Source: a virus
Length of the DNA stretch: 64,000 bases
IMG/VR virus record: IMGVR_UViG_3300049460_000134
Location: 32,001-96,000 of that record
Direction: 5' to 3' (one strand)
Both the position numbers and the translations under genes were made by a program. The notes beneath the pieces were generated by a model that was not told the origin of the DNA, searched no databases, and was given only the letters and a program-made list of their open reading frames with translations. Shown piece after piece: positions 4,745-62,104 of this stretch (positions are counted from its first letter, which is position 1; every line of letters begins with the position of its first letter).

Positions 4745-7700
4745 ATGCAATCGATCCTCGCAGCCCGGACAGACTTCTCGCTCGGCGAAAGCATTCTGAC
4801 GGCTGAAAAGCTGGTCGATATCGCCGTTGAGCAGAAAGCCACTGCCGTCGCGATCACCGACACCATGTCTGTTACAGGCATGATCGACTTCACCAATCGC
4901 GCCAAGAAGCAGAACGTCAAGCCGATCATCGGTGTTCGGCTGCGCATGTCTGACGATCCGACCTGGCGGCCGGCGAAGGGCGAGAAGAAGAAGCACATGC
5001 CGCCTGAGCACTTCCTTACGGCATATGTGCTGACTGAAGTCGGCATGAAGGCCATCTTCCGTCTGCTGACCAAGGCGAACGGTCCTGATCGCTTCTACTA
5101 CACCGCCAAGCTTTCTTATCAGGATCTCTACGACGAGCTTGGCAAGATGCTCTCCGGCAACCTCGCTATTCATCTCGGCGAGACGCACGGCGTCTTGATG
5201 CATCCAGCCTATGAGCAGATCATTGAGAAGCTGGTGCTGCACCTTGGCGAAGGCTACGTCTACACGCCGGCGATCCCGATCAACACACCCTACTTCGGCG
5301 CCGTCAATCAGCGATCGGAGCAGATCGCGATCAGATACAGCCTGCCGCCGCTTGTCGTGCGCCCCGCCTACTACGAAGCGAACCAGGCCGACGCGCACGA
5401 AATCATGGGTGCGATCTCCAACGGCAACAAGATCGAAGACGGCTGGCACCGCTCGGCGCACAATCGCGACTTCCATGTGCTCGGCGCGCAAGATCTCGCC
5501 AATGAGGTCATTGCCGCAGCAAAGCACCTGAAGCTGCGCGGTGTGCAGAACGCCGGCAACTTCTTCAAGCGTGGTCTCGCCAACACCGATCGCCTGGTCA
5601 ACGAGGTCGAATACGAATGGTCCAAGCAGCCGGTCTCGCTGCCACAGATGGCGCCTGACGAGTTCAAGGCTGTCGTCGATGAGTGCAAGAAAGGCTGGGC
5701 TGAGCGCTTCTCATCTGAAGCCTTCGGTCACGTTCCAACGAAGGAAGAGTTGGTCGAGGTCTATAAGCCGCGCCTCACGTATGAGCTGGAGATCCTGAAG
5801 AAGCTCAACTTCTCTGGCTACTTCCTACTCGTGCAGGACGTGGTGCAGTTCTCCAAGAAGGCAGGCATTCTCGTTGGACCAGGCCGCGGCTCTGTTGGTG
5901 GTTCGCTCGTCGCTTATCTGATGGGTATCACAGACTGCGATCCGATCCGCTTTGGCCTGCTTTTTGAGCGCTTCATCAATCCTGAGCGTCTCGACCTTCC
6001 TGACGCAGACTTGGACTTCATGTCTGAGCGCCGGCACGAGGTTGTCGAATATCTCATTCAGAAGCACGGCGAAAAGCGCGTCGCTGGTGTGTCGAACTTC
6101 GGCCGCCTGGCTGCAGCGTCTTCGATCCGCGACGTCGGGCGCACCTTCGGCATTCCTGAGAAGGAATATTCGGTCTCGAAGTATGTGCCAAAGCTTCACG
6201 GTGCCAACGTGCCGCTACCAGGCTGCGCAGAGCAGGTTCCGGAGATCCAGGCATTCGCCGACAAGTATCCGGCGCACTGGACCATTATGGAGCGCCTGGA
6301 AGGCACGATCCGCAACATGTCGCAGCACGCAGCCGGCATTGTCGTCGGTGGTGTGGATCTCGAAGAGCGCGCGGTCATCGAAAAGCGCAAGGGAGATTCG
6401 GCAGTCGTCTGCTGGGACAAGCGCATCGTTGAGGATCAAGGCCTGGTCAAGATGGATATCTTGGGTCTGAACACGCTCGACCTGATCTCGCTGGTGCTCC
6501 AATACATCATGGAGCGGCGCCAGAAGAAGATTAACCTGATGAAGATCCCGCTCGACGATCCGAAGGTGCTCGAAAACTTCGCCAAAGGGCTCACGACTGG
6601 CGTCTTCCAGTTCGAAAGCTCTGGCATGCGCAAGCTGCTGCGCGAGCTCGGCGCCGATGGCACGATTACCTTCGATGACGTGACTGCCGCGACCGCGCTC
6701 TATCGTCCAGGTCCAATGGAATCTGGCATGATGGACAGCTACTACAAGCGCAAGCAAGGCAATGAATACGTCGAATATGACCATCCACTCATGGAAGACG
6801 TGCTGAAGGAAACCTTCGGCGTTATCGTCTACCAGGAACAGGTCATGAAGATCTCCCAGGTCATCTGCGGCTACTCCGGCGCTGACGCCGACAAGCTGCG
6901 TAAGATCATGGGTAAAAAGCTGCCTGAAGAAATGAAGAAGGAGCGCGGCAAGTTCTGCGACGGTGCGGTCAAGACGATCCAATGCACTGAGGAATGGGCA
7001 GGCGCTCTCTTCGACAAGATCGAAGGCTTCGCTGGTTACGGCTTCAACAAGTCGCACTCGGTCGAATACTCGCTGATTTCCTGGCAGTCCATGTGGCTGA
7101 AGACTCACTATCCGGTCGAGTTCTTCGCGGCAGCACTCACGCTGATGGATCAGGACAAGCTACCGGCGATCCTGCGTGATGCTGCTCGCTTCGGCATTGA
7201 GGTATCGATGCCTGACATCAACATTTCGACCGGTCGTTTCGAGATCGCGACTGATGTGCGCCTGGTCATCCCCTTCCAGCGCATCAAGGGCATTTCAACC
7301 AACACGACGGCCGCCATCCTCGCCGCGCGCGAAGATGGACCCTTCAAGAACAAGGCTGACTTCCTCGATCGCGTCAACAAGACCAAGTGCAACAAGAAGC
7401 ATCAGGAGGCGCTCGACCTTGTCGGTGCGTTCTGTCGCATCGAGGTCGGTCAAGTTGCGTCGGCTGATCCCAGTCGCATTCGTGACCAGCTCGAGCTGTT
7501 GCCTGGCCTCGTGACAGCGACCGTGCCGATCAATCGCACCATGCCGCACGACAAAGCGACCAAGGAGGCAATCGCTGATGTGATCGCCGACTATAAGGAA
7601 GCTCTGTCTGAAGACGGCATCATGGTCCAGCCGTGCTTTGGCAAGCGTGCGCAATTCATGATCATTGCCGACGCGCCAACGAGCGCTGAAGAGCAGGAAG

Positions 7701-9111: not shown

Positions 9112-10053
9112 ATGGCTCTCTCTCCTGCTCTCCAGAAACTCGTTTCGAACGCTGCTAACAAGTATCAGCGCTCCAGCGGCGACCGCATCAAGCCGAAAGA
9201 AGGCATGAACCGTTACCGCATCGTCATTCCAAATCCTGACGAACAGTTCTGGGCAGATCTCGGCGTTCACTGGATCAAGGCTGAAGAAAACGGCAAGCCG
9301 TTCGCTGTCGTCGGTTGCTCCGACGTGTGCTTCGGTGAACCGTGCGAAATCGACACCGCGATCAACGAGGCGATCAAGAACGCCTTTGATGAAGAATCCC
9401 GCAAGCTCTATGAGAGCTGGCGCGCGAAGAAGACCGTTCTCCTGAACGTGCTCGATCGCTCCAAGGGCTCGTCTGATCCCGACAAGGTCCAGATCCTCGA
9501 AATCACCGGCGGCACGTTCGGTAACATCATGGGTCTGGTGCAGCAGTTCGCCGAAGAAGGCGTCGATCTTCTCGATGCAGTCGAAGGTATGGACATCATG
9601 ATTACGAAGACCGGCAAGGGTCTTCAGACCGAATACTCGGTCAACACGGCGCCTGGCGCTTCGAAGCCGGTCACGAAGGCTCATATGGGCGGCGTGAACG
9701 ACCTGAAGCAGCACATCAACCGTGAGTTCTTCAAGGGCGAAGAACAGAAGGCGCTGACCTTCATCGCGCAGACGGCACAGATCGACGTTCCGCGTCTCGG
9801 CTCTTCGGCCGCAAAGACGCCGACGGCTGCTCTGACTTCGCGTGCCGCTACCGTCAAGCAGCCGGTTGAAGAAGAACCTGCTGAAGAGCCGGTCGAAGTC
9901 GATGAAGGCGATATCGCTCAGGTCGAGCGTGAGGAAGCAGCTACCAAGCCTGCTCCGAAGAAGACTGTCGCTGCGGCAGTCGAAGAAGCCGCCGAAGCCG
10001 CCGTTGATGACGGTGACATCGACGACGTCCTCGCTGATCTGGACAACCTGTAA
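9112..10053 (+). CDS. Single-stranded DNA-binding protein (gp32-like)
   Basis: HW...C...C-EI Zn-type motif, KTGKGLQTEYSV, acidic tail DDIDDVLADLDNL-type. Confidence 0.7.
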   Translation: MALSPALQKLVSNAANKYQRSSGDRIKPKEGMNRYRIVIPNPDEQFWADLGVHWIKAEENGKPFAVVGCSDVCFGEPCEIDTAINEAIKNAFDEESRKLYESWRAKKTVLLNVLDRSKGSSDPDKVQILEITGGTFGNIMGLVQQFAEEGVDLLDAVEGMDIMITKTGKGLQTEYSVNTAPGASKPVTKAHMGGVNDLKQHINREFFKGEEQKALTFIAQTAQIDVPRLGSSAAKTPTAALTSRAATVKQPVEEEPAEEPVEVDEGDIAQVEREEAATKPAPKKTVAAAVEEAAEAAVDDGDIDDVLADLDNL

Positions 10054-10225: not shown

Positions 10226-11185
10226 ATGAACCGCTATCTGCTGATCGACGGCCCCAATATCACGCATGCCGCGAACAACACGAAAAAGCTGACTGTCGGC
10301 GACGTCCAGGTCCAGGCGGTCTATCAGTTTCTCCAAATTCTCCGGCGCATTCAGTCTGTTTACGCCTCCTACACGCCGATCGTTCTCTGGGACGGTGCTT
10401 CCTGGCGTCGCATGGCCTATCCTGAATACAAGGCTAATCGCGACAAGCCTGCCACCTCGCAGATTGAAATTCAGCAGAAGGAAGCTCGCGAGCAGGCACA
10501 GAAGCAGATGCCGGCAATCAAGAAGGCACTCGAGCTGCTTGGCGTTACGCAGATCAAGGCTGCGAACATGGAAGCAGACGACCTGGCCGCCATCGTTGGC
10601 GATCGCTACGCAGCCAAAGGCGCGAAGATCGTTCTCGTCTCCGGCGATAAGGATTGGGTGCAGCTCGTCAACGACAACATCATCTGGTTCGATCCGATCG
10701 TCGATCGCAAGATCCGCAAGTGGGAAGATATCAACGAGGCGCTCGGCTACGATCTCAAGGGCTTTCAGCAGTTCCTCGAAATGAAGTGCCTGTTTGGCGA
10801 CTCCGGCGACAACATTCCTGGCGTCGGTGGCGTTGGCGAGAAAGGCGCGATCGACTTCCTCAATCAGTATGGCTCGCTCGCGAACTTTTCCAACATGTGC
10901 ATCGACGGCTCGCTCGATCTGAAGAAGGTGCCGAAAAAGTATCGCAACCTTGTCGAAGACGAGGACCGGCGCATCAAGTTCGCTTTCAACATGAAGCTGA
11001 TGGACCTGCGCACGACGCAGCGCCCTGATCCGCTGAACCTCGCGGTCAACAAGGGCACGCCTGACATTCAGCGGTTCGAGAACTTCTGCAACCGCTTCCT
11101 CTTCAAGTCGATCACCAAGAACCTAACGGTCTGGGCGAGCGTCTTTCCAGCCCTCCATGAACTGCAACAGGAGCTAGCAGCATGA
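10226..11185 (+). CDS. 5'-3' exonuclease / flap endonuclease (T4 RNase H-like)
   Basis: LLIDG, YPEYKANR, EADD, SGDKD, GDSGDNIPGVGGVGEK. Confidence 0.93.
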   Translation: MNRYLLIDGPNITHAANNTKKLTVGDVQVQAVYQFLQILRRIQSVYASYTPIVLWDGASWRRMAYPEYKANRDKPATSQIEIQQKEAREQAQKQMPAIKKALELLGVTQIKAANMEADDLAAIVGDRYAAKGAKIVLVSGDKDWVQLVNDNIIWFDPIVDRKIRKWEDINEALGYDLKGFQQFLEMKCLFGDSGDNIPGVGGVGEKGAIDFLNQYGSLANFSNMCIDGSLDLKKVPKKYRNLVEDEDRRIKFAFNMKLMDLRTTQRPDPLNLAVNKGTPDIQRFENFCNRFLFKSITKNLTVWASVFPALHELQQELAA

Positions 11186-49299: not shown

Positions 49300-51473
49300 T
49301 GCGTCACCCCTTCCTCTCCCGCTTCGATCATAGCGGCCGCTCCGGATCTTCCGGTGGCGTGCCGCGCTTCACCCTTGACTACGACTCGATCGCCGAAGAT
49401 TTCGAGATCGGCTGGTCTGTTACCAGCCTCCTGATCAACGGCGATACCAACGATCCTAACTACACCAGCTTCGTCATCGTCGATGACCCGGATGGGAGGT
49501 TCTCGATCAGCGGAAGCACTCTGTTCCTTGCTGCTCTGGTGGATTACGAGACCAAGTCGAGCCACGACGTGTCGATCATGGCTATTCACGCTACCGACCC
49601 GACCAAGAACATCGTCAAGACCTTCACCATCCAGGTCGAGAACCTTGCAGAAGGCCTGCTTGGCCCGACCGTGGCGAGCTTCATCTCGGGTGCGGCGCCT
49701 GGCACGGTCGTTTGCGACATCACCGGTCTAGACGTCAGCGTGAACGAGCGGCTTTTGGCGATCCTGTATCCCGCGAACAACAAGGTTGTCATCAGTCCGG
49801 ACGGCATGCAGCTCCTTGTGGGCACAAACCTTCAGTCGGCAGGACAGACGGAAACCCTCAGCATTGTTACCAACCGTGGCCGGAATCTCAACATCGATGT
49901 CACCGCCCAGTCGGCAGAGCAGCCGATCTACCGCGTGGCAACGCGTCAGTATGGCACCGGCTACAACGCCGAAAGCGTTGCGCTGACTGGCGATGGCTCG
50001 ACCAAGACCTATACGACCTCGCTCGTCAACGAGAGTGGTCGGCAGATGGATACGGTCGCGATCGCATTCCAGGGCTGGGGTCTCATCACGACTGGCACGC
50101 AGCCTGTCGGGAACGACAACACCATGTCTGGCACGATCACCTACAATGGCGTGACGCAGAACTTTCAGGACGTTGTGGTGCCCAATGGTGACGACACGCA
50201 GAATGCGGATCTTGCTCTCTCGACGCCGATCCCGGCAGGCGCAAGCTTCAGCATCAACCTTAGCTCTCCGGTCGCAAGCGGTGCCAAGTATCCGCCGCGG
50301 CTTGGCTTTGCTGGCGTGCTGACCAAGGCTCTCGAGTCCGAGCTGGAGCCTGCCTTCTACGGCATCGGTGACTCGATCGCGACCAACAATGGCGCAGCAC
50401 TCATGAACGCCTCGATCGGCAAGTGCCCTGTCTACCAGGCGTCGATCGTCGGAACGACCGCACAAGCCTATGGCGAGAATACCGCCAACTTCCTGCGCCA
50501 GAAGAACCTGGCAAAGCGGCTTGGTGCGGACTTCTTCTGCGACTTCGGCACCAACGACCTGATCGCCAGCAAGACGCCGGCGCAGATCCTCGGCTGGCTG
50601 AAGAACATGCGCGATCTCGCCAAGGCAGACGGTATCGGCTGGATCCAGACGACGATGCTGCCGCGCGTCACCAAGAAGGCAGCGGTCGCCGTGACCAGCC
50701 TGACGTCCGATGGCATCAGCAACAGGATGAAGATCAAGGTTGCGGACGCGTCGATCTTCACGATCGGTCAGGCCTACTCGGTGGCAGGCGCAACACCGGC
50801 TGGCTACAACGGCTCGACGATCTGTGACGGACTCGACCTTGCACAGAACGAGGCAACCTTCATCTGCGCCAATGGTCTCGCGAGCCCCGCGACCGGCACG
50901 ATCACCATCACGGCTCGTAATCCGACCAACACGGCCTACTGGCAGCAGCCGGCGAACTCCAACTACAATCCAGGCGCGGCAAGCCCTCGTGGCGTGTTCA
51001 ACACGGCAGTTCGAAATGGACCATCCAGCGGTGACTTCGACGCCTTTGTAGATTGGGCGGATGCCGTAGAGCCCTTCCGTGACAGCGGCCGCTTTGCCGT
51101 GGCTGGCGAAAAGGGCAAACTGCCGTTGCCTGTCATCGCGACCGTCATCGCCGGCGGCACCAGGACGACCACGCGTTTCAATACCGACTACGGCGTTGGG
51201 TCGAGCACGACGGCAAACGGTCTGGTGCAGTTCATCACCGGCGCCAATGCCGGCCAGCTCAAGGGCGCATCGAACAACACCGCCGGCGACATCACGTTGC
51301 TGACGGCTCTGACCGCGGCTCCGGCTGTCGGCGACAAGATGTGGGTTTGGCCTGGCGTCTGCTACCAGTCCGACGACGGTATCCACGACCGCGTCTCGAC
51401 AGGCGGCATGGGTGGGCAGGTGCTCCTCGATGATGAGACCCAAGAGTTCCTCATCGAAGCGATTGCCGCCTAG
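49299..51473 (+). CDS. Cadherin/Ig-like plus SGNH hydrolase protein (putative carbohydrate esterase)
   Basis: LVDYETKSSH cadherin-like motif; GDSI, GTND and DGIH SGNH blocks. Confidence 0.65.
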   Translation: MRHPFLSRFDHSGRSGSSGGVPRFTLDYDSIAEDFEIGWSVTSLLINGDTNDPNYTSFVIVDDPDGRFSISGSTLFLAALVDYETKSSHDVSIMAIHATDPTKNIVKTFTIQVENLAEGLLGPTVASFISGAAPGTVVCDITGLDVSVNERLLAILYPANNKVVISPDGMQLLVGTNLQSAGQTETLSIVTNRGRNLNIDVTAQSAEQPIYRVATRQYGTGYNAESVALTGDGSTKTYTTSLVNESGRQMDTVAIAFQGWGLITTGTQPVGNDNTMSGTITYNGVTQNFQDVVVPNGDDTQNADLALSTPIPAGASFSINLSSPVASGAKYPPRLGFAGVLTKALESELEPAFYGIGDSIATNNGAALMNASIGKCPVYQASIVGTTAQAYGENTANFLRQKNLAKRLGADFFCDFGTNDLIASKTPAQILGWLKNMRDLAKADGIGWIQTTMLPRVTKKAAVAVTSLTSDGISNRMKIKVADASIFTIGQAYSVAGATPAGYNGSTICDGLDLAQNEATFICANGLASPATGTITITARNPTNTAYWQQPANSNYNPGAASPRGVFNTAVRNGPSSGDFDAFVDWADAVEPFRDSGRFAVAGEKGKLPLPVIATVIAGGTRTTTRFNTDYGVGSSTTANGLVQFITGANAGQLKGASNNTAGDITLLTALTAAPAVGDKMWVWPGVCYQSDDGIHDRVSTGGMGGQVLLDDETQEFLIEAIAA

Positions 51474-51775
51474 CGCGGCAGTTGGCCAAGGATCCACATG
51501 TTATGATCCTTGGCCCCACACTTTCGGCACCTAAGCATGTGCTTCAAGGAGCCAATATACGTATTGGCTCCATATTTCCTGACCAGCTCCCAGCGATCCA
51601 CCCATCCGTCATGCTCGCATTTGATGCAGTGTCCGCCGAGCGCATAATACTCAGGCAGATCATCAAAAACCGTGTGCTGTGGATCCATGAGTGGTCCCAG
51701 GTAGGTGATGCCGTCAGACGGTCGCCGCACCAGTTCCACACCTCGCCGGTGTTTCATTGTTCCTATTTTGTTCAC
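51470..51775 (-). CDS. Small Zn-ribbon protein
   Basis: CIKC and CRKC pairs. Confidence 0.5.
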   Translation of the reverse strand: MNKIGTMKHRRGVELVRRPSDGITYLGPLMDPQHTVFDDLPEYYALGGHCIKCEHDGWVDRWELVRKYGANTYIGSLKHMLRCRKCGAKDHNMWILGQLPR

Positions 51776-51788
51776 TAAACAGCCGGAG

Positions 51789-52145
51789 TCAATTAGCCTC
51801 TGGTGATATGGCAGGTTTTCTTTTCCTCGAGCCCTTCAGTTTCAGCCGTGGCTCAGGGCGCAACTGGATATACTCTTCCAGCATCATGAGCATTTCAGCA
51901 GCCGCGGCGGCCGCCACGAACGCAGCTCTTGCCTCTTCCGGATCAACCTTGCCTTCCATAGCGGCCAGGCACACCAGTTGCGCGTTCTGCCACTCCTCGC
52001 CGCGGTCATCTTCAGGCCAGCGGAAGACCAGGCTGTAAGCCAGGTCGCCAAGGGTAGCGTGCCGGCGCATGTTCACGCCTTTGCGCTTCTCGATGCAGAC
52101 GATGGCATCGCGGATGCTCATGTGCTCGCCAATGTATTCAGCCAT
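51789..52145 (-). CDS. DUF982 family protein
   Basis: WP....W..A..VCLAAMEG...PEEARAAFVAAA..A; family typical of Rhizobiales. Confidence 0.75.
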   Translation of the reverse strand: MAEYIGEHMSIRDAIVCIEKRKGVNMRRHATLGDLAYSLVFRWPEDDRGEEWQNAQLVCLAAMEGKVDPEEARAAFVAAAAAAEMLMMLEEYIQLRPEPRLKLKGSRKRKPAISPEAN

Positions 52146-52299
52146 ACGCATTACCTCCAAGGGAGTCCAAGGTAGGCGTCACATGTTACGAATCCAAGAG
52201 CCATATTAGAGTCGCCTAAAAGAATCTTCCGAACATAGCCGCGAGCTTCCCAGCAGCGAGCATGCGATAACAAATCATCAAAGACGAAGAGAGAAAGAG

Positions 52300-52665
52300 A
52301 GCTAACAGTGAGATCGCCATGTGAACGATGAGGGTAGCTACCTCGACCGCAAATAGCTCGGCTCCGATTAAGCTCGTCACGCTCATACGGTAGGCAGACC
52401 GCTACAATAGAGGATGGGATAGATATGCGCCCTACCCTCCGGCTGCTGAGTCCGCTTTGTCGCCCACTCGCTTAGAGATCCGGGGTGAAATCAATCCACC
52501 TGTATGCCTTGCGCCGAACCCTTGACCCCGGCAGGCGCATTGTCACAGCGAGCCATCGCTTGATTGCTCACGATCCACTCCCTACGCGGTGAAGAATGTA
52601 GCCTCGTTGTGAACCGAAGGACCGCTCGGAGTGAGATCAATGAACAATCGCCGCAAATAGCCACT
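52300..52665 (+). ncRNA. Candidate large structured non-coding RNA
   Basis: ORF-free region after a promoter motif, with several long-range stems and internal direct repeats. Confidence 0.45.
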
Positions 52666-52728
52666 TGGACGCCGTTCTCAAGTGTCGTATTCAGTAATTA
52701 TTGACTGACAAACACGAAAGAGCGAGCT

Positions 52729-53578
52729 ATGAAGCGCAAACCGACAAAGACCATAGAATTCACAGCGGCTGAGCACCGCGTCATCACGGCAATCGTCAAC
52801 GCTATCCAGTTCGGCGGCGACGTCGTCGTGGCAGCTCAGCGCGCCGAAGAGCGCAACAACGATGTGAAGCCGGTCGCTGAAGGTTCCGAGGAGGAACTAA
52901 TCATCTGGGGTAACATCACCGATCTCTTCCAAAAGATCCGGCTCGCCTGAAAGGAACAACAATGACCAAGGAACAAATCGCCGAGATCTGGGACCGGTAT
53001 TTCGAGATCGTCAGCGAGGACGATGATGACGTCGTGCCGGTGCATGGCGAGCTGGCTGAGAAGCTCAAGGCTCTGATCGCTGAGGCGCCATACCAGGGCA
53101 AGGATCCGATGTTCTGCACTGGCTTCTGGACATACGAGGACGGCAACCGTGCCTTTGAGATCAGCCTCCACCTCAACAGCGGCGAATCTGCCATCTGCGA
53201 CGCCGACGTCCCTGATGTGGATAAGCGCAGCGATCGCCTCGACAAGCTGCGCTGGGCCCAGATCCGCGCATTGCTGACGGTGGACGAGGCAAACGCCCTA
53301 GTCGAGTGTGCTGAGGCAATGGACCAGTTCGCCGACGAATGCGAGTCTCAAGGCAACGAGGTGTCAGCAGACGAGCTTTGGACCAAGGCAGGACTCGTGC
53401 AAAGCATGATGGCGTGCGCTCCATGATGACGGCAGCATATCAGACCAAGCTCCTCAAAGACCGTCGCACCTTGGCGCAGAGTAAGGTAAAGGCGTTGGCA
53501 GAGGGCGACGCCAAGCGAGCCGCTTACGAGAAGTGGATCGCCGAGCTCGACGAACAGATAATGGCTCTAGGAGGCTAG
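52729..53578 (+). CDS. Three small hypothetical ORFs
   Basis: 52729-52950, 52962-53426 and about 53423-53578. Confidence 0.45.
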
Positions 53579-54051
53579 GTATGATTGGCACAATTGAGCT
53601 CATGGCGTTCTTCTTCGTCGGCGGACTGATGTTCTGCACCGGCGTTCACTTCGAGCGCTGGCAGGTTCGCCAGGAGCAGAGGAGAGAATGGAATGACCGC
53701 TGATCCACGCCTAACCCGATCATTCGGCATCAAGTGGCCGCGGATCTTCCCTGGGACTATCTGATCCCTGGGTGTGTCACTGCCATCAAGAAGAGGCGCG
53801 AGCAAGCTGGGCACGACTTCATCCGGCTCTACGAGGCCTTCTACAAGAGCCGATAACAGTTTCAGGTAGGGGATCTGTCCGTGCTTCCCCTACAGCGCGC
53901 AGCCGGCGGTCGTGCTACCAAACAACACCGGCAGACTGCAGCCGTTCTCTTTCGGCGGTGATGCAGCATAGAGAGCCACGCCATACCCCAGGCGTGTGAA
54001 GTAAAGAGCGACTGTTGGCTCTTTCTCTCTATAGCCAGGTAGAGCCGTGGC

Positions 54052-54519
54052 ATGCCATATCTCTCGCAGAGGGAGATACAGATGATTGACCAGGCGAAAT
54101 ACGACAAAGAGCTCGAGGAATGGCTCGAGAATACACCGACCTTGGCTCACGAGCGCCGCGCACTCGATAAGCTTAGAGCTGCCTACCAGGCGGTATTAAG
54201 CGATCCGCGGTTCAAACTCTCCCCTTGGCTTGCAAATGTGGTCCGCAGCGACGCCAATAACTATCTGTGGCTCGATATTCGCACGCATGCCTGGAACGAG
54301 AACGACGATGCGCAGTGGGTGATGAACTACGACCTTGGGCTCGGCGCCTATTTTCAATGGGTGAGAAACGACCAGGACCACCAAGTGGTGCGCAGCCGGA
54401 TCGACGAGAAGGACGTAATCGACCTCGCCATTCAGTTCTGCCTGAAAGCGCTGGAGAAAGGATGGCTACCGCCACGGTCCTTGACAGGCCAGGCCACGGC
54501 ACCACTCACAGGCGATTAA
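54052..54519 (+). CDS. Hypothetical protein
   Basis: ORF with plausible SD. Confidence 0.45.
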   Translation: MPYLSQREIQMIDQAKYDKELEEWLENTPTLAHERRALDKLRAAYQAVLSDPRFKLSPWLANVVRSDANNYLWLDIRTHAWNENDDAQWVMNYDLGLGAYFQWVRNDQDHQVVRSRIDEKDVIDLAIQFCLKALEKGWLPPRSLTGQATAPLTGD

Positions 54520-55030
54520 CAGCCAATCTCCACAACCTCATCCGCTTAACATTAGACCGCCCTAATGTTAACTCGAAACCGCGCAGTTAACATCCAATCG
54601 TTTAGTGAACATCGCGCCATGCTTAATAGTTTAACCTTAGTTTAACACTAACTTACCCTCAAATGACCGAAATCGAATTTTTCCCTCGAATGTTAAACTC
54701 CCCAGAGCACAACCTGCTGACAACGGAATCGCTATAGAAGCTCACACAATCGATCCGCTCACGTCTAACGATACAGACAGCGCTCTCTATAGCGGATGAA
54801 GCTCAGCAACGCTCTCAGCGTCAAACAGCACACAGGTCTCGTCGTATCTAAACGCTATAGAAACCAGTGCAGAAAACATTCACAGCAACACCGGCTAGAA
54901 ACAGCTCAATCCATAGAGAGACAGCGACCAGCATAGAGAGCCAATAGACCTAGAGAGAGGCTATAGAGCACATAAGCGCATAGCGGGGAGAGAGCATAGA
55001 GAGGTCCGCGGTATAGAGAGGGAGCTATTG
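54520..55030. repeat. AT-rich non-coding region with TTAAC and (CT)ATAGAG repeats; possible origin or packaging region
   Basis: Clustered ttaac/gttaa at 54515-54700; repeated atagag(ag) at 54910-55020. Confidence 0.4.
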
Positions 55031-55368
55031 CAAAGAGTCGATGGTGGAAATGCGTCGGCGCCGATCCTGTCTCGCCAGCCCAATCCACGCCTCGCCTCAC
55101 CCATCCTGTGCACAGCCGACTTAACCCTTTCGCAACCCGACGCGCGACGCGCTACTGTCATTCTGTGACGAGCAGGTGCTCACACGCAGCGAATGATCTG
55201 GGGCTGGGGCATTGGATCATCACCTTAGAGGCGGTCTTCACAGGATCGCCTCTCTTTTTGACCTCCAGGAAAATAGGAACCACGCCAACTCGCCGTCGCA
55301 GACGCCAAACCGTAGGGTGCTCCTAATTGCGGACGTGCCTGATGAGCCGGACCTTAGCCTCTCTATAG

Positions 55369-55440
55369 CCGCGGCATGCCACCTTAAGCCGGAGTGATCC
55401 TAGGATGACCGAGGCGTGCCTTGGAAATCCTCGGCGAGAC
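55369..55440. repeat. 10-bp phased CC(NN)GG array
   Basis: CC at 55369, 55379, 55389, 55399, 55409, 55419 and 55429; five of the seven are CCNNGG. Confidence 0.75.
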
Positions 55441-55453
55441 CTTCTTTCCGAGT

Positions 55454-55511
55454 CCGTGTTCTCACTAATATAATCTTCTTATCTACGTATTATCTATTAG
55501 TGAGAACATGG
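55454..55511. repeat. 17-bp inverted repeat around a 24-nt AT-rich loop
   Basis: ccgtgttctcactaata ... tattagtgagaacatgg (16/17 match). Confidence 0.75.
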
Positions 55512-55665
55512 CTCCGGATATGTCCGGAATGTGTCCGTGGCTCTCCATACGCCGGAACGAGCCTAAACGTGCCGTGAAAAGCCGATTTCTATCCTAAAAT
55601 CAAAGACTTATGTTCTTCTCATCGAAAGCGAGCGCACTCGAAGCGCGTCACAGAGGAGAAAGAGC

Positions 55666-56346
55666 ATGCAGTCCACGTCCAACCAGGCACCGGCCACGTC
55701 CAAGAAGATAGAGGCCTACGACTTCAAGCAGGCGGCACAGAGCCATACATCTGACGAGTTGGCGGCGTTTGCCTTGCGTGTCGAGCAGGCGTTCACCGCA
55801 AGAGCGCAGTTCGAGCTCGACCAGACGAGCAACGCCGACGAGCCGATCCAGAAGAAGCTCGCCACCGCACGCAAGTCCTTCTCTATGCCGGACACACTGC
55901 GCGGCATGATCGAACTCAACCTCGATCCGGAGTTCATCAACGGCACGCTCTCCAAAGACGGCAAAGGCAAGCGCCTGAACGTCTATGCCATCAAGAAGGC
56001 GCAGCAGATCGTGGACTTCATGCTCGGCAAGGACAAGCTGCCGGAGGTGCTGATCGCCTGCCTCAAGTCGATGGTGGCATTCAAGGCGGCCGGCGAGAAG
56101 TTCACGGCAGAGTTTTCCAAGGCTGCAGTCTCAGACAAGATCAGGCTCGCGCCATCTGCCGGCCTTAAGCTCCTTGTCAGGCACAACGTCGATAAGGCTA
56201 CCGCCTCGACGCAGGCAAGTAGTAATATGCGCATTCTGCAGGCTCTTGGTCTGGTGAAGAACGTAGGCAGTGCACGCTCCGGTGTGTATGAGCTGACGGA
56301 TACAAAGCAGGCGGTAGCGCTTGTGGATCTTCTGAGGTCAGCCTAG
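55666..56346 (+). CDS. Putative DNA-binding protein, paralog of 58471-59055
   Basis: Shared blocks NVYAIKKA, LKSMVAFKAAGEKFT and MRILQALGLV. Confidence 0.6.
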   Translation: MQSTSNQAPATSKKIEAYDFKQAAQSHTSDELAAFALRVEQAFTARAQFELDQTSNADEPIQKKLATARKSFSMPDTLRGMIELNLDPEFINGTLSKDGKGKRLNVYAIKKAQQIVDFMLGKDKLPEVLIACLKSMVAFKAAGEKFTAEFSKAAVSDKIRLAPSAGLKLLVRHNVDKATASTQASSNMRILQALGLVKNVGSARSGVYELTDTKQAVALVDLLRSA

Positions 56347-56379
56347 GCCTCGCCGGCTAGGCGAAACTGCAGAGGGGAA

Positions 56380-56419
56380 GAGGCGGTAGGCACCCAAACC
56401 TACCGCCTCGCTTTGTTTT
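56380..56419 (+). terminator. Intrinsic terminator
   Basis: gaggcggtagg/cctaccgcctc stem plus T-rich tail. Confidence 0.7.
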
Positions 56420-56540
56420 GGCTATAGAGAGACCAAGGATATCCGTGGCAGCGGCCATTAGGAACCGGTGGGGTCCAAGGGACCGGCCGCTAGAAACCAC
56501 GCATGTCCGCTCCAGGTGTAGGGGAAGGATTGGGTTGATG

Positions 56541-56586
56541 CCGCGGCGATCCTAGGCGATCCGTGGCAGGCCGCGGCAAACCTTGG
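56541..56586. repeat. 10-bp phased CCNNGG array
   Basis: ccgcgg 56541, cctagg 56551, ccgtgg 56561, ccgcgg 56571, ccttgg 56581. Confidence 0.8.
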
Positions 56587-56707
56587 CTGAGGCATCGCCT
56601 CCCCTCTCCTATCCGTGCCTCGCCGGAGTGATCCAGAGATTGCCGATTGCATGCCTCTCTCTATCATCGTATCAGTAATTATTGACTGACAAACACAAGA
56701 GAGACAC

Positions 56708-57040
56708 ATGAAGATCATTACTGAAGCCGAACTGACGAGCGCTATCGAAGACTGCCTGTGCGAAGTGTTTGAGCTCGTCGTAGGCCAGCGCGCATATCTC
56801 GAAGTGCTCACGAATGAGACGGACTACGTCGGCACGCTCATCGAGTATGAGACGGACCTTGGCTTTCACAACGCGACAAACGTCTTCGATCTGGACCTAG
56901 AGACGCGCAAGTATGCCTTTGAGCGCGCAGTGACTGCCGGCGATGCGAAACAGTCGTTCTTTGCATATGACAGCCTATCTGATGCGAAAGCACACGCCAC
57001 GGCGCTGCTATTCGCAAAGCTCGACGGCTACGAAGAATAG
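56708..57040 (+). CDS. Acidic hypothetical protein
   Basis: ORF after an operator; GAGAG-type SD. Confidence 0.55.
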   Translation: MKIITEAELTSAIEDCLCEVFELVVGQRAYLEVLTNETDYVGTLIEYETDLGFHNATNVFDLDLETRKYAFERAVTAGDAKQSFFAYDSLSDAKAHATALLFAKLDGYEE

Positions 57041-57282
57041 GCCATAGCGAGCGTCGCTGACCGCGGCGCTTTCATTTGGCTTGTCGAGTGCCGTGGCGAT
57101 CCTTGGAACCCGCCGAGGGGCAGTCCACGCCACACCAGGCCGGTCCAGTCCTCATCCGGCCAGGCCAGGTCCACGGCACGTCAGGCCGCCTCACCCTGCA
57201 AGACCCCTGCAATGCCGATTTGATCGCCTTTAGCGACTTCGCTAAAACAATAATTAGCGAAACACGAAAGAGAGACACGCGC

Positions 57283-57606
57283 ATGACCAACGAACTCGTA
57301 AAGACCGCCGCCATTGCTCTGCTCAATCATCTGTCCACGATGAACGATGATGCCTTTGAGCGCGTCGATACCGACTACATCGACTATTCGCCTGACGCGC
57401 ACTTCACAGTCGCCTTGTTCGACGCGATCGAGCCAGCCAAAGACCGCAACTACTTCGACATGATTACCGAGTTCACCTACGAGCTCGCCAGTGTCACCAA
57501 GAGCGATGACGATCGTGCCGACGTCGATCGCTTCTGCACCAAGCTCTTCTCCGCCCTCCTCCGTTTCGAAATGAGCGAGAACATCCAGAGTCTCGACGCC
57601 TCATAG
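57283..57606 (+). CDS. Acidic hypothetical protein lacking Gly and Trp
   Basis: 107 aa; no GG on the coding strand. Confidence 0.55.
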   Translation: MTNELVKTAAIALLNHLSTMNDDAFERVDTDYIDYSPDAHFTVALFDAIEPAKDRNYFDMITEFTYELASVTKSDDDRADVDRFCTKLFSALLRFEMSENIQSLDAS

Positions 57607-57682
57607 CGCCGACAACATCCATTTGAACGCCTTTAGCGAATTCGCTAAATATTTAAGTGTCAACAACGTGAGAGCGAGACAC

Positions 57683-57853
57683 ATGCAAACGATCATTCCA
57701 GCGCCGACCGTCAGATACCACATAAAAGAAATGACGCCGCGCCAGTCGAACTTCGCAAGCCAAGCCCTGTCGCTTGCCAAGGAGACTGCCGCCTTCATTG
57801 CCTTTATCGTCTTCGTCTGTGCTGTCATCGCCGTGTGCGTGATAATCCACTAA
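57683..57853 (+). CDS. Small membrane protein lacking Gly and Trp
   Basis: C-terminal hydrophobic helix; followed by terminator 57860-57902. Confidence 0.45.
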   Translation: MQTIIPAPTVRYHIKEMTPRQSNFASQALSLAKETAAFIAFIVFVCAVIAVCVIIH

Positions 57854-58018
57854 GTCGAGAGCCAGGTCCGGACACCGCCATGTCACCGGACCTGGCTTTT
57901 TCATTGCCTGAAACCATGGCATGCCACGGTTGCCAAAATCAGGAACCGAGGCTATTCGTGCCAAGGGGATCCAGTCCGGCGAGTCCCGCTGGCGATGCCT
58001 GTCAATATATGAGCGCTC

Positions 58019-58083
58019 GCTACATCGCTCGACGCTTCATTAGTCGATGCTACATTACGCGCTGCTGCATTAGTCGACGCTTC
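58019..58083. repeat. Degenerate 15-bp tandem repeat (about 4 copies)
   Basis: gctacatcgctcgac / gcttcattagtcgat / gctacattacgcgct / gctgcattagtcgac. Confidence 0.6.
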
Positions 58084-58164
58084 GAAAGCGCACGCTCTCA
58101 CACCTCTTGCTCAATTAGCGCATGCTCACAGACACGCGCTCGCGAGCCTGTCCGTTTCCGCACC

Positions 58165-58203
58165 AAAAACAAAGAAAAGCACACGCTTGTTTAGCGTGTG
58201 CTT
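58165..58203 (-). terminator. Intrinsic terminator for the minus-strand genes
   Basis: aagcacacgct/agcgtgtgctt stem preceded by an A-tract; the stem contains no GG or CC. Confidence 0.65.
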
Positions 58204-58221
58204 GTATCTGCTTTTGCTGTT

Positions 58222-58401
58222 TTATTCAGCGCTCATGCGCTCGCGTTCTGTGGTGCGCACATAGTCGCGCATGTCGAAATACTCGCTTTCATAGTCGCGC
58301 TCTAACAGCGCAACGTCTGAGGTGTTAGCAAACGACATGCTAAGCGCTTGTCTGAAGTTGTCGCGCTCGCGACGCTCTTTCTTTGTCATGTGTATGCGCA
58401 T
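58222..58401 (-). CDS. 59-aa charged protein not in the ORF track, lacking Gly, Pro and Trp
   Basis: MRIHMTKKERRERDNFRQALSMSFANTSDVALLERDYESEYFDMRDYVRTTERERMSAE*; GAGAG SD; lies between an operator and a terminator. Confidence 0.5.
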   Translation of the reverse strand: MRIHMTKKERRERDNFRQALSMSFANTSDVALLERDYESEYFDMRDYVRTTERERMSAE

Positions 58402-58470
58402 TATCTAAATCTCTCGTTGGTGTTTCGTGTGAGTGTCAGTCAATTAAGACTGACACTCGTTTCTGTGGTG

Positions 58471-59055
58471 TTACGCGCTCAGCTTCGCTTCAATGAGCGC
58501 AAAGATTGCGTTGTTGTTGACTGCATATTCAGTCTTGTTTTTCTGCTCAATCAGATTGAGCGCATGCAGTGCGCGCATGCTCATGTTTGCATGTCGTGCA
58601 TAGTTCGCGAATTGCGTGCGACGCTGATAGATGAGCGCTTTTTTGGTGTCGTCGATTTTCGCGCTCGCGTTCAAGCTGTCTTCAATGTCGCGCACAGTGA
58701 AGTTTACATTAGCGTTCTTGAAGTTAACAAGCGTGCGCAACACTTCTTCGAGATTGCTCTTGAGGTGTTTTACATCGTCGCGCGTTGCGAACTTGAGCAA
58801 GCTATCAACACTGTTGATTGCTTTCATGCACATATACTTATTTTCGACGCGCTTGTCGTGCGAAAACACCTCAGAAACGTTGCTCTTCTTGAGCAACGCA
58901 GCAACGCTTTTCTGCGATACTGTGAGCGTTACATCAGTGATGAACTTGAGCGATGCAGCGCATGCACCATTTTTCAGTTCATCGTCATAGCGCTTGTTCA
59001 AATCTGCAGCGTATGCGTTGATCTTGACTTCGTTGTTCTTCGTTACTTCAGTCAT
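58471..59055 (-). CDS. Putative DNA-binding protein, GG/CC-depleted paralog of 55666-56346
   Basis: 194 aa with 1 Gly, 0 Pro and 0 Trp; alignable blocks with 55666. Confidence 0.65.
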   Translation of the reverse strand: MTEVTKNNEVKINAYAADLNKRYDDELKNGACAASLKFITDVTLTVSQKSVAALLKKSNVSEVFSHDKRVENKYMCMKAINSVDSLLKFATRDDVKHLKSNLEEVLRTLVNFKNANVNFTVRDIEDSLNASAKIDDTKKALIYQRRTQFANYARHANMSMRALHALNLIEQKNKTEYAVNNNAIFALIEAKLSA

Positions 59056-59612
59056 TTGCTTGTCTTTCTTTCGTTGTGCTGTTTAATCAGCGTTGTTAAC
59101 ATGTTCACTAAACACTTATTCGCAAAAACAGTCAAGCGTATCAGTCAAAAATAACTGACATTTTGCGAAAATAATTCGATGCACTCTATTTGACACATAG
59201 ACGCGCACTGACGCGCGTTGTGTGTCGTGCGCTGTCATCTATCGTTTTTGTGCGTCGCTGCATCCCTCGTGCAACGTCGTGACAATGCGCGCGTGATTGA
59301 TTCTCTAGTGTCGCGTGACAGTGTTGCTAGCGTGAGTTTTCGAGGTGAAAGCGAAGTCTTAGAAAAAAGTGCGTCGCTCGAAAGGGATGCCTCCTGCTGC
59401 GCCGACACTTCCCGGCTCGGACTACCTGTCCTCATTCCCGGCCTGGACGGACAGCATAGGTGCGGTATGCCGAGGCCCCTCCCCTGCTCTCCCCTCTACC
59501 AGACCGCCCAGATTCCCGGATCCCGGACTACCTATCCTTATGTGTCAGTAACTATTGACTGACATTCGACGCGCGGCTACAGTCGCCTCATCATCAACGC
59601 AGGATCTCTCCT

Positions 59613-60542
59613 ATGGAAATCACTAACTCCGGCAACCTCCAGGTCAGAACGCACGAGAACGGCGTTCAGGAATTCCTCGAGGCCCCGCTCAGCATGTCGC
59701 TGTTCAACGACTTTGAGGACCGGCTGCTGACACGCCACACGGACGGCCGCTACGTCTTCAGGGACGATCGCGGCAACGTGCTGATCTACATGAGCACTGG
59801 CCTCTCCGCGCTCGACGGCTTCCAGCGCGTCGGTCTGGAGCTCAAGAGCTACTACGACGTGGAGCGCAACCTCTACCAGACCGCCTTCCCTCCCCTCTCC
59901 CTGACGATGAGCGACGTTCTCGTGCCGAACAGGCTTCTCCAGGAGCTGACATTCGTTCCGACCGAGGAGCCGTTCGTCTACAAGCGCACTGCTGGTCCGT
60001 TTGGCTTCCCTGTGCTCGATCTCTTCGGTCAGCTTGCCGACAGCATTCCCCTCGAGGACGCCGTAACAGCAGCCCCTGGCTATCTCAGCGGCGAGCCGAC
60101 CGAACAGGAGCCTGTCACCGCCGGCTCGCTCTCGAATGCGGACGGCAGCTTCAAGATTGACCTGGACGAAGGCGCGATCGAAATTAGCGAAAGCCAGAAT
60201 TCGCTAACTCGCGTTTCCGTTCACTATGACGATCGCCGCGACCTGGTCTTCGTCGGCTATGACGTCTTGGATCACATCGACGACGACGGCGGCGCCCTGG
60301 CGCTCGAGATCGATGGCAAGGCGATCGTGCCGGCCTTTGGCTGGACGCACTACACCTTCGAGGCGCTCGACAATCCGCTTGTGGACGAAGAGGCGCCGCT
60401 TGCTTCTGTCGCGAAAGAGCGAATTAGCGATCCGATCTGCGAAGGACCGGTCTTTCCGGATGGCAGCTTCACCAAGGATCAGATCGAAGAGGCTTTCCGC
60501 TTCCTCGTCGCCGACAAGCTCACCGATCGCAAGGCAGCCTGA
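59613..60542 (+). CDS. Acidic hypothetical protein
   Basis: Long ORF after an operator, with AGGA SD. Confidence 0.55.
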   Translation: MEITNSGNLQVRTHENGVQEFLEAPLSMSLFNDFEDRLLTRHTDGRYVFRDDRGNVLIYMSTGLSALDGFQRVGLELKSYYDVERNLYQTAFPPLSLTMSDVLVPNRLLQELTFVPTEEPFVYKRTAGPFGFPVLDLFGQLADSIPLEDAVTAAPGYLSGEPTEQEPVTAGSLSNADGSFKIDLDEGAIEISESQNSLTRVSVHYDDRRDLVFVGYDVLDHIDDDGGALALEIDGKAIVPAFGWTHYTFEALDNPLVDEEAPLASVAKERISDPICEGPVFPDGSFTKDQIEEAFRFLVADKLTDRKAA

Positions 60543-60665
60543 GCATGGACGCTGTCTCGCTCGCCGGCGATACGACTGACCTGGTGGTGAAGTCCATTGA
60601 CTTCACCTTGGTGCTCATCGTCGTGATCGCCTTCATGCTCCACGATACCAAGAATAGGATCTGAA

Positions 60666-60950
60666 ATGACGGACACCGTCAAAGGACTGCCCATAAAGGG
60701 CTACAAGAACGAGCAGCCGATCCACCTGGTCGAGCTGGTCAACGAGAACAAGGTTCTCGAGGAAATGGTTCTGCGCCAGATCGACCGGCACGTCGCACTC
60801 GGCGCCGAGGTCAATGGTCGTGACGTGCAGATGGCTCGTGGTCTGATCGAGGATGCGTTCATGCGCCTCAACCGCGGCGTATTCCAGCCGCAACGTCTCG
60901 AAGGCGAGCTCGGCGGGGCTGTCCTTGCTGATATGCTGGGAGCTGCCTGA
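60666..60950 (+). CDS. acb2: Acb2-like anti-CBASS cyclic-nucleotide sponge
   Basis: IKGY, N..K.LE and R....A....E.AFM.L.R...QP pattern, and about 90-aa size, match Acb2 as recalled. Confidence 0.65.
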   Translation: MTDTVKGLPIKGYKNEQPIHLVELVNENKVLEEMVLRQIDRHVALGAEVNGRDVQMARGLIEDAFMRLNRGVFQPQRLEGELGGAVLADMLGAA

Positions 60951-61103
60951 TGAGCGTCGTCGCCCTACTCTACGTCTGGCTGGCGCTCTGGCTCCTGATC
61001 GGCATCTTTGTCGCCGGTCTGGTGCTGCTCTTCCTGCGGTTCATCTGGCGAACCTATCGCTTTATCCAGAAAGAGCGATTTCGCGATTTAGCGAATGCAC
61101 GAT

Positions 61104-61131
61104 AAAAGAAAGGGCGCTTAGAGCGCCCTTT
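61104..61131. terminator. Bidirectional terminator between convergent units
   Basis: aaagggcgct/agcgcccttt. Confidence 0.7.
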
Positions 61132-61132
61132 G

Positions 61133-61414
61133 TCATTTCTGCGTCTTCTTCCAGGCCGCGAAGCACTCCTCGAGGAGTTCCTTCATCGACATGCCTCTCG
61201 CGGTCGCGGTCATCTTGAACTCCCGGCTGAATGCGCCGTCCACCTTGAAGTTCAGATCTTTGTAGATCTTCTTGACCTTCATGTTGTCGGCCACGAATGG
61301 CGTCTCGGCGGTATCGGCGATCGTCGCCAGCAGCTTGAACTCGTCGGCCTTCTTGCTTGGCGGCTTGCCTACCGGTGCCTTGGTAGCTGCCGTTTCAACT
61401 GGTGCCTTTGTCAT
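61133..61414 (-). CDS. Ribbon-helix-helix centromere-binding protein (ParG-like)
   Basis: Flexible N-terminus plus DLNFKV...EFKMTA..RGMSMKELL; coupled to parA. Confidence 0.7.
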   Translation of the reverse strand: MTKAPVETAATKAPVGKPPSKKADEFKLLATIADTAETPFVADNMKVKKIYKDLNFKVDGAFSREFKMTATARGMSMKELLEECFAAWKKTQK

Positions 61415-62055
61415 GCTGCTTCCTCCGCGGCCTGGTTGATCCTGGTGACGATCTCGCTGGCGAGAGCCTCAGCGCGCTCGTTGAGCGACGGATACTTGGT
61501 CTCGGAGATCGCAAAGCCGGTGTTTTGAGCGGACTGATACCCTGCCCTGGTGCCTAGATCGGTATCGGCGACGTCGAAGCCCTGCTTCTTGATGAGCGCT
61601 GCTGCCTCGCGAACCGCGGCCTCACTGTCGGCCGTCTTGTTGAGGACGAAGAAGATCTTGTCTCGGCTGACGCCTTTGGCCGCGAGCTCCTGGGCAAAGC
61701 CAAGCTGCGGCTTCAGATCGTCCACGGTCACGCCGGTCGGCACGATGACTTGGTCGGCGACCAGGGCAGCCTCGAGCGAGGTCTGAACAGAGTCCGGCGC
61801 GCCATCGACGATCAGGCAGTCGGCCGTCTCATTCTTCAGCTTCTTGACCGAGTTGAACGGCTGCGCCTCGATCTCCGGCTGGATCACACCGCGGATGCGT
61901 GCCGCCACCCAATCAACCGAAGTGAGCTGGTTGGTGTTGAAGTCGCAGATCTTCACCGACCACTCAGCCGATGCGTAGGTTCTAGCCATCAGCCGAGCGA
62001 GCGTGGACTTGCCGACGCCGCCTTTCTGGGACAGGCACGCGATTATCAGGGTCAT
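61411..62055 (-). CDS. parA: ParA Walker-type partition ATPase (type Ib)
   Basis: SQKGGVGKST deviant Walker A, IVDGAP; short, with no N-terminal HTH. Confidence 0.9.
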   Translation of the reverse strand: MTLIIACLSQKGGVGKSTLARLMARTYASAEWSVKICDFNTNQLTSVDWVAARIRGVIQPEIEAQPFNSVKKLKNETADCLIVDGAPDSVQTSLEAALVADQVIVPTGVTVDDLKPQLGFAQELAAKGVSRDKIFFVLNKTADSEAAVREAAALIKKQGFDVADTDLGTRAGYQSAQNTGFAISETKYPSLNERAEALASEIVTRINQAAEEAA

Positions 62056-62056
62056 G

Positions 62057-62104
62057 GTCGCTAATTCCCGTTTGAACGATTTCGCTAAATCGTTACTTAG
62101 CGGA
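62057..62104. promoter_or_regulatory. TTAGCGA(A)-type repeats upstream of parA (candidate parS/autoregulatory site)
   Basis: tcgctaa, ttcgctaa and ttagcg immediately upstream of parA; the same unit recurs at 61074, 63731, 60181, 60421, 57230, 57633, 13108 and 9046. Confidence 0.5.

Follow-up and report, generated by a model that had tools for sequence, protein, structure and literature searches.

What reads the short runs of CCNNGG, spaced by one turn of the DNA helix, that recur in successive intergenic gaps of the viral genome IMGVR_UViG_3300049460_000134 (IMG/VR)? The window analysed here is the whole 64,000-nucleotide stretch covering bases 32001-96000 of this 115,555-bp genome, and the runs lie within 55169-57966 (coordinates are those of the window, unless another record is named), on both sides of a gene that we call P0003 and next to an operon nearly free of the dinucleotides GG and CC. 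We conclude that these arrays are a deeply conserved cis-element and, in principle, a novel form of a class already known, that of phased arrays to which proteins bind cooperatively. On balance, and with a confidence only a little above even, we favour the view that they are cooperative, same-face binding sites for the P0003 protein, through which an early module of rightward genes is controlled; P0003 as the binder, the cooperativity of binding and the transcriptional output are what we infer from comparative evidence. The elements on which the argument turns are the following.

55369..55434: main array, CC every 10 bp seven times (starts 55369, 55379, 55389, 55399, 55409, 55419 and 55429), with the full CCNNGG in five of the seven units (55369, 55399, 55409, 55419 and 55429)
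55458..55508: inverted repeat between the main array and the P0003 gene, with 12-bp arms and a 26-bp AT-rich spacer
55666..56346, plus strand: P0003 gene, 226 aa, with the best coding score in the locus
56380..56409, plus strand: terminator of the P0003 gene (terminator scan)
56433..56448: two-unit pair CCAAGG-N4-CCGTGG (56433/56443), 24 bp after that terminator
56541..56586: five-unit array CCGCGG, CCTAGG, CCGTGG, CCGCGG, CCTTGG in 10-bp steps (56541/51/61/71/81)
57091..57106: two-unit pair CCGTGG-N4-CCTTGG (57091/57101), after a weak terminator at 57055-57068
57914..57989: boundary element between convergent terminators, made of CCATGG-N4-CCACGG (57914/57924), then AGGAACCG, GCCAAGG, CCGGC and GTCCC

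An earlier note, made from the letters alone, had given all the array coordinates correctly, including CC every 10 bp from 55369 to 55429, and its observation is real. Genome-wide, CCNNGG is found 405 times, against 409 +/- 19 in block-wise dinucleotide shuffles, and 12 pairs are exactly 10 bp apart, against a shuffle mean of 1.4 and a shuffle maximum of 6 (a further 7 pairs are separated by 20 bp and 5 by 30 bp). Ten of these 12 pairs fall within 55399-57924, the other two (52157 and 63529) being what chance alone predicts. The locus at 55169-57966 holds 28 CCNNGG sites where 9.8 are expected, and its ten 10-bp pairs compare with an expectation of 0.05 (maximum of 2 in 2000 shuffles). Codon-usage scoring indicates that the runs are non-coding, and they lie in the gaps 54520-55665, 56347-56707, 57041-57282 and 57854-58221; the two-unit pairs start 16-24 bp after hairpin terminators (56380-56409, the weak 57055-57068, and 57862-57898). 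The description of the arrays as filling these gaps needs correction, since they extend over 16-66 bp of gaps that are 240-1150 bp long. The periodicity, too, is a local property, being confined to runs of two to seven units, and no significant 10-bp Fourier peak was obtained for CC or GG over any whole gap. We found no paper on phased CCNNGG arrays in phages.

The DNA relatives of the window are the Rhizobium phages RHph_Y2_11, RHph_N1_15 and RHEph10; the proteins that they have in common with it are only 35-66% identical. In the literature, RHEph10 and the Sinorhizobium plasmid pLM21S1 are grouped together as plasmid-like prophages that replicate by RepC and have a partition system (PMC4447125, PMC7969092), and the locus is also present on a 115.6-kb Pararhizobium plasmid; the window is therefore part of a phage-plasmid. 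The family that bears the arrays consists of 110-120 kb alphaproteobacterial phage-plasmids of soil bacteria, of the RHEph10 and pLM21S1 types, which are widespread, yet hardly studied.

In the three named phages, phased CCNNGG runs occupy the same gaps and almost nowhere else in the genome, and the same layout is seen in a close IMG/VR relative and a further one, in the Pararhizobium plasmid, a Shinella plasmid, pLM21S1 and a Methylobacterium plasmid, in contigs of Faunimonas, Methylocystis and Chelativorans, and in most of the 110-120 kb viral contigs. The loci with the pattern comprise seven close lineages, the Shinella plasmid, pLM21S1, the Methylobacterium plasmid, four more loci on genome contigs and 27 on viral contigs. 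By contrast, among the 80 CCNNGG sites of an unrelated plasmid, taken as a control, there is not a single 10-bp pair. Orthologous arrays are in register, with an identity to the window of 0.65 in the CC/GG columns, 0.34 in the central NN and 0.29 in the 4-bp spacers (the last two values being near random), and units have been gained and lost at the array ends among lineages. When the spacings of 30 loci are pooled, 195 pairs are found at 10 bp, against approximately 15-30 at neighbouring spacings, with harmonics at 20 bp (97 pairs) and 30 bp (72 pairs) and a shoulder at 11 bp. In lineage L137, where the layout is the same, 11 bp replaces 10 bp altogether (nine pairs against none), the arrays lying at 5528-5613, 7087-7109, 9645-9680 and 10562-10584 of that record. 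What is kept is the helical phasing and the CC..GG frame, rather than the exact spacing or the sequence. Phasing without conservation of sequence, now seen in more than 30 related loci, fits cooperative binding on one face, and it rules out recent tandem duplication, which the earlier note had named as the case that would tell against its reading: the layout is kept across lineages, and Tandem Repeats Finder (TRF) calls no tandem repeat at the arrays.

The anatomy of the unit was derived from 396 distinct phased units, compared with the unphased CCNNGG sites of the same loci. C stands at the first inner position in 4% of the phased units, and G at the second in 4%, against 18% and 15%, respectively, in unphased sites; CCATGG makes up 33% of the phased units, and CCRYGG two thirds. 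The unit is a degenerate 6-bp palindrome, CCDHGG, with the consensus CCRYGG. Symmetric protein subunits that form a lattice along one face of the helix would select such a palindrome at every turn. Runs of two units are the most numerous (109), followed by those of three (37), four (12), five (3) and six (3).

The arrays accompany one gene. Over 29 loci, the 800 bp upstream of the P0003-family gene have 3.8 phased pairs per kb and the 500 bp downstream have 4.9 per kb, whereas the density within the gene is 0.09 per kb and that of other sequence 0.30 per kb; a phased pair is found upstream in 25 of the 29 loci, and likewise downstream in 25. Profile searches place 294 clusters in the P0003 family, nearly all of them from contigs of about 100-120 kb, and P0003 has no Pfam or PHROG family match. 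Its AlphaFold2 model (predicted local distance difference test, pLDDT, of 85) has an N-terminal helical bundle and a C-terminal winged helix (WH). Residues 113-226 match winged-helix proteins with Z of 7-9.6, including MarR, ArsR and ORC-type domains (the WH domains of ORC/Cdc6 at Z 7.1-7.6), while residues 20-120 form a generic helical bundle, the N-terminal matches of the model reaching Z <=6.4 only and giving no sign of a second winged helix. Foldseek found no match of the model in the PDB at E <=0.001, and the sole match in PDB sequence and profile searches was a marginal one, to the ArsR family. The most conserved peptide of the family, TA[PS]TQ[AKV]SS, lies on the predicted recognition helix, which fits a DNA target that is likewise invariant across the family. 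It is because of conservation, gene association and the winged-helix fold together that we read the arrays as candidate cooperative binding sites of P0003. They provide a cis-element together with a candidate binder from an uncharacterised family (no Pfam model for any of the 294 clusters), and a direct handle on early-gene control in these phage-plasmids.

In the mechanism that we propose, CCRYGG units 10 bp apart (11 bp in one lineage) would lie on the same side of the helix, and, since units one turn apart face the same side, bound subunits could touch. Neighbouring subunits would be in contact through the N-terminal helical bundle, building short nucleoprotein stacks of 2-7 units. Such stacks would stand upstream and downstream of P0003's own gene, after terminators and before the sigma-70-like promoters of the next small early genes (the neighbours at 56708-57853 encode proteins of 56-110 aa without a Pfam family), with a further stack at the near edge of the convergent GG/CC-free operon. 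They would set or insulate the transcription of the rightward early module, and this control may be part of the choice between lytic growth and life as a plasmid-prophage.

Several observations weigh against this assignment. Because the gene and the arrays keep their synteny within a single family of elements, finding them together is no independent evidence for P0003 as the binder, which could instead be its paralog P0001 (see below), a different protein of the phage or a factor of the host. A winged-helix dimer usually contacts a half-site in each of two adjacent major grooves, rather than a single 6-bp palindrome every 10 bp. About 200-300 bp separate the main array from the start of the P0003 gene downstream, which is far for a simple operator, and four family members (L127, L136, L144 and L118) have the gene with few or no phased pairs.

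The paralog just mentioned is encoded in the zone that borders the arrays, for which the relevant features are these.

58000..59383, minus strand: GG/CC-poor zone (dinucleotide counts) with two genes, 58222-58401 and 58471-59055, the latter encoding P0001
59383..59540: stretch rich in CC that adjoins the zone's far edge, with three copies of TTCCCGG

The zone covers the whole two-gene operon, including its promoter and terminator. Defined strictly as at least 700 bp with at most three GG/CC, it is found in 21 of 28 relatives (the zone lies, for example, at L001 6400-7600 and L113 12800-14000), and it is kept in most of the phage-plasmid superfamily, across several host families, though M. oryzae and some few lineages from IMG/VR are without it. 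The window itself falls short of the strict definition, the longest qualifying stretch of its zone being 618 bp. P0001 and P0003 are remote paralogs (aligning A4 with A5 in hhalign gives a probability of 89% and E 2e-6; cross-family hmmsearch matches are of 1e-6 to 2e-4), a relationship visible with profiles only, since BLASTP of P0001 against P0003 gives no alignment, and its predicted recognition helix is different (RHA.M.MRAL). The island next door to the arrays, whose composition is very unusual, thus holds a recoded P0003 paralog, which the arrays open to testing.

That the arrays and the zone are parts of one system, as the earlier note had proposed, is plausible, and the idea is strengthened by the paralogy of P0001 and P0003. 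It also draws on position: of the 21 relatives with a zone, 14 have a phased pair no more than 350 bp from its near (P0003) side, and none has one at its far side. On the other hand, the zone is missing from four relatives that do have arrays (M. oryzae, L123, L137 and L142); a further two lack both features, and another two have the zone with few or no phased pairs. In M. oryzae, a second paralog is co-oriented with the P0003 ortholog and is merely GG-poor on the coding strand. The CC-rich stretch at the far boundary, to which the earlier note had also pointed, is real (29 CC within 59401-59600) but unphased, and contains no CCNNGG pair.

A bolder version of the one-system idea, which we regard as rather improbable, is that arrays and operon make up a single switch working by a dinucleotide code, in which a protein of the P0003/P0001 family nucleates on the CCRYGG stacks and then spreads over, or bridges, DNA containing GG and CC, silencing the early module. 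The zone operon, which is purged of GG and CC and in places has lost even glycine and proline codons, could therefore not be coated and would stay expressed. If this were true, the zone would be a sequence-encoded immune island deciding between lytic growth and the plasmid-prophage state.

Two further observations concern the surroundings of the zone. In RHEph10, the zone (L003 7540-8381; gp147 and gp148) is annotated with plus-strand genes, while every other record has the homologous family on the minus strand; stop-rich words are rare in this zone, which leaves both of its strands open. Beside the zone, the window has two plus-strand genes (57283-57853) with many CC and almost no GG on the coding strand, whose products (107 and 56 aa) are glycine-free and whose ribosome-binding sites are of the GAGAGA type, without GG; this strand bias recurs in relatives beside the zone.

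Among other explanations of the arrays, the main rival to transcription control is an iteron-like origin of replication with copy control, which we hold to be unlikely. P0003 would here be an origin-binding protein, the upstream array and the AT-rich inverted repeat the origin, and the downstream arrays handcuffing sites. Iteron replicons such as those of P1 (incC-repA-incA) and F (oriS-repE-incC) have directional, well-conserved iterons of 17-22 bp, phased at about two helical turns, and a Rep protein with two winged helices, and our locus is like them in its sites flanking a winged-helix gene (on each side in 25 of the 29 loci), in the AT-rich element nearby, whose arms covary, and in the plasmid life of the element; the ORC/Cdc6 WH domains among the P0003 matches also speak for this reading. 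The units are, however, degenerate palindromes of 10-11 bp, and runs of three and five units are common, so the period is not 20 bp. The N-terminal half of P0003 is a generic bundle with no sign of a second winged helix in the model, no Rep-family Pfam match was obtained, and a DnaA-box scan gave no cluster at the arrays. Additional pairs follow the terminators of unrelated small genes and stand at the zone edge, and under a strict test no more than 9 of 26 loci, the window included, have an inverted repeat of this kind (the spacers have a TATCTAC-like motif in common). The element family, which lives both as phage and as plasmid (PMC4447125), already has a RepC replicon. A distinctly less probable reading is that the arrays serve the ParA partition system of the element as centromere-like sites, which would be dispersed in the manner of N15. 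A ParA gene (61411-62055, Pfam CbiA/ParA) and a small gene downstream of it lie 3.5-6 kb from the arrays, and short repeats about one turn apart, bound cooperatively on one face, are typical of ParR-parC and ParG-parH centromeres (R1, pSK41, pB171, TP228), which in pB171 lie on both sides of the operon encoding the binder, much as the arrays flank the candidate binder gene here. Those binders are ribbon-helix-helix proteins encoded beside a ParA or ParM motor, whereas P0003 is a winged-helix gene with no motor adjacent, and in the window's arrays only CC..GG is kept per unit. The arrays, moreover, are not beside the par operon and track the P0003 gene rather than parA; other repeats (CTCTCGTT, TTAGCGA) stand upstream of parA, and a ParB/KorB-type protein is a better match for the TTTAGCGA-NN-TCGCTAAA palindromes, which occur close to the par operon as well as in two promoters.

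About as improbable as a centromere is that the arrays are host-factor or methylation-dependent sites, either a switch of the SeqA/GATC-like or pac-like kind, made of clustered degenerate palindromes that are Type II-like, or restriction decoys. CCNNGG is a known restriction-modification word, and the persistence of CC/GG across host families would suit a conserved host protein; yet the arrays track a phage gene, and decoy or modification sites, one of the functions suggested in the earlier note, look unlikely when the word is neither depleted nor enriched genome-wide (405 against 409). No methyltransferase is annotated in RHph_Y2_11, and a published survey lists no methyltransferase gene in pLM21S1 (PMC5537653). 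A signal for packaging initiation or for an injection stop at a genome end seems very improbable: the boundary element at 57914-57989, between its convergent terminators, is strongly conserved, with positions invariant in six lineages (alignment A3), and a T5 A1-like protein is annotated in relatives, but arrays occur in at least four gaps rather than at a single site, the terminase gene of RHph_Y2_11 is approximately 13 kb from them, and in relatives they flank one regulator-like gene instead of tracking a genome end. Nucleoid organisation, which the earlier note had named beside these two roles, likewise lacks support. We give least credence to protein-independent DNA curvature or stiffness that tunes nearby promoters. 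Phased GC-rich steps can indeed bend DNA, but each unit has two such steps 4 bp apart in a palindrome-like arrangement, not one step per turn, a pattern that intrinsic curvature would not select; there is no gap-wide periodicity, the inner positions follow a strict rule against C (first) or G (second), and an exact 10 bp in most lineages against an exact 11 bp in another points to a protein lattice.

If the arrays are P0003 sites, their closest counterparts can also be sought outside origins and ParR/ParG centromeres. In TubR-tubC (pBtoxis and the Clostridium phage c-st), a winged-helix protein coats phased 12-bp repeats, and the likeness lies in the combination of such a protein with phased short repeats on a phage-plasmid-like element; no TubZ-like gene is adjacent to P0003, however, and the TubR match is weak (Foldseek probability 0.25). 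The met-box of MetJ and the operators of Arc and CopG are tandem short palindromes bound by touching dimers of ribbon-helix-helix proteins, with MetJ units 8 bp apart, but theirs is a single operator per operon, whereas here several arrays are distributed along a module. The OB operator of KorB in RK2 is a single 13-bp palindrome, with sites in several plasmid promoter regions that provide global control. Dispersed sites of one protein are what it has in common with our arrays, and the window's OB-like TTTAGCGA-NN-TCGCTAAA is separate from them. Copies of this palindrome are at 57229-57246 and 57632-57649, in the spacers of two promoters, and related half-sites surround the ParA operon (61088 and 62058-62082); we take it to resemble the KorB operator half-site TTTAGC. 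The 93-aa protein encoded downstream of ParA (61133-61414) has no Pfam match and, by eye, a disordered basic N-terminus and a ribbon-helix-helix, ParG-like C-terminus.

The remaining features of the locus are listed here.

55227..55253, plus strand: intrinsic terminator closing the upstream non-coding stretch (terminator scan)
about 55275: conserved AGGAACCA motif, after that terminator (alignment A7)
56461..56489: block GGAACCGGTGGGGTCCA, containing CCAAGG at 56475, invariant in six of six aligned lineages (alignment A8)
hexamers within about 56640-56667: sigma-70-like promoter, -35 TTGCCG and -10 TATCAT
57862..57898, plus strand: hairpin terminator of the 56-aa gene, with a 10-bp stem, a long loop and a T-run (read from the letters; hairpin conserved in A3)

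In A7, the T-run of the first terminator and GGAACC are invariant in six lineages, and the arms of the inverted repeat at 55458..55508 differ between the window and its relatives with their complementarity kept. The main array is positionally orthologous to arrays of four to six units in relatives. At the place of the 56433..56448 pair, relatives have a pair shifted by one unit (A8), and the counterpart of 57091..57106 in the close relative L006 reads CCGTGG-N4-CCATGG, its spacer bases differing from the window's (A2). The GGAACCGGTGGGGTCCA block extends as AGGGACCGGCCG in four of five relatives (with one base different in Pq_p5), the extension being deleted in N1_15; its invariant 17-mer, considered as a possible host site, was rejected, since an exact search of 596 Gb of genomes returned 102 matches in unrelated taxa, at about the chance rate. 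From the end of the five-unit array to the downstream promoter there are 54 bp (56587-56640). Reading the TGGCA and GGAAC words as sigma-54 or extracytoplasmic function (ECF)-type promoters was discarded, because their spacings do not fit. Rfam (E up to 1) and tRNA scans of 51000-61500 returned nothing credible, and the cumulative GC skew is monotonic and carries no information on the origin.

The stretch at 54520-55230, part of 1.1 kb without a convincing open reading frame, holds additional repeat families: GTTAACA-like words appear about seven times at 54540-54700, and ATAGAGAG at 54783-55013 and at other nearby sites. A further word, CTATAGAGAG, adjoins arrays at 54025, 55355 and 56420. 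The 20-bp motif TCAGTAAnTATTGACTGACA is found at 52691, 56672 and 59545 and at about ten further sites genome-wide, roughly 20 nt before start codons, and may be a promoter or operator specific to the phage; 58430-58456 is a perfect palindrome related to it. About 130 nt ending in a terminator in RHph_Y2_11 (L001 3540-3680) and the same region of N1_15 and RHEph10 are nearly identical at the nucleotide level, and fall inside the annotated coding sequences (CDS) EVC19_009 and RHEph10 gp141. Regulatory DNA or a small RNA is the probable nature of this stretch, which makes the two CDS doubtful; some annotated genes of the relatives, such as these, are probably conserved non-coding DNA. Finally, the 94-aa product of 60666-60950 has a Pfam match (E 6e-10) to the hairpin domain of Acb2/Tad1, whose family consists of anti-CBASS/anti-Thoeris sponges, and marks the region as an early anti-defence module.

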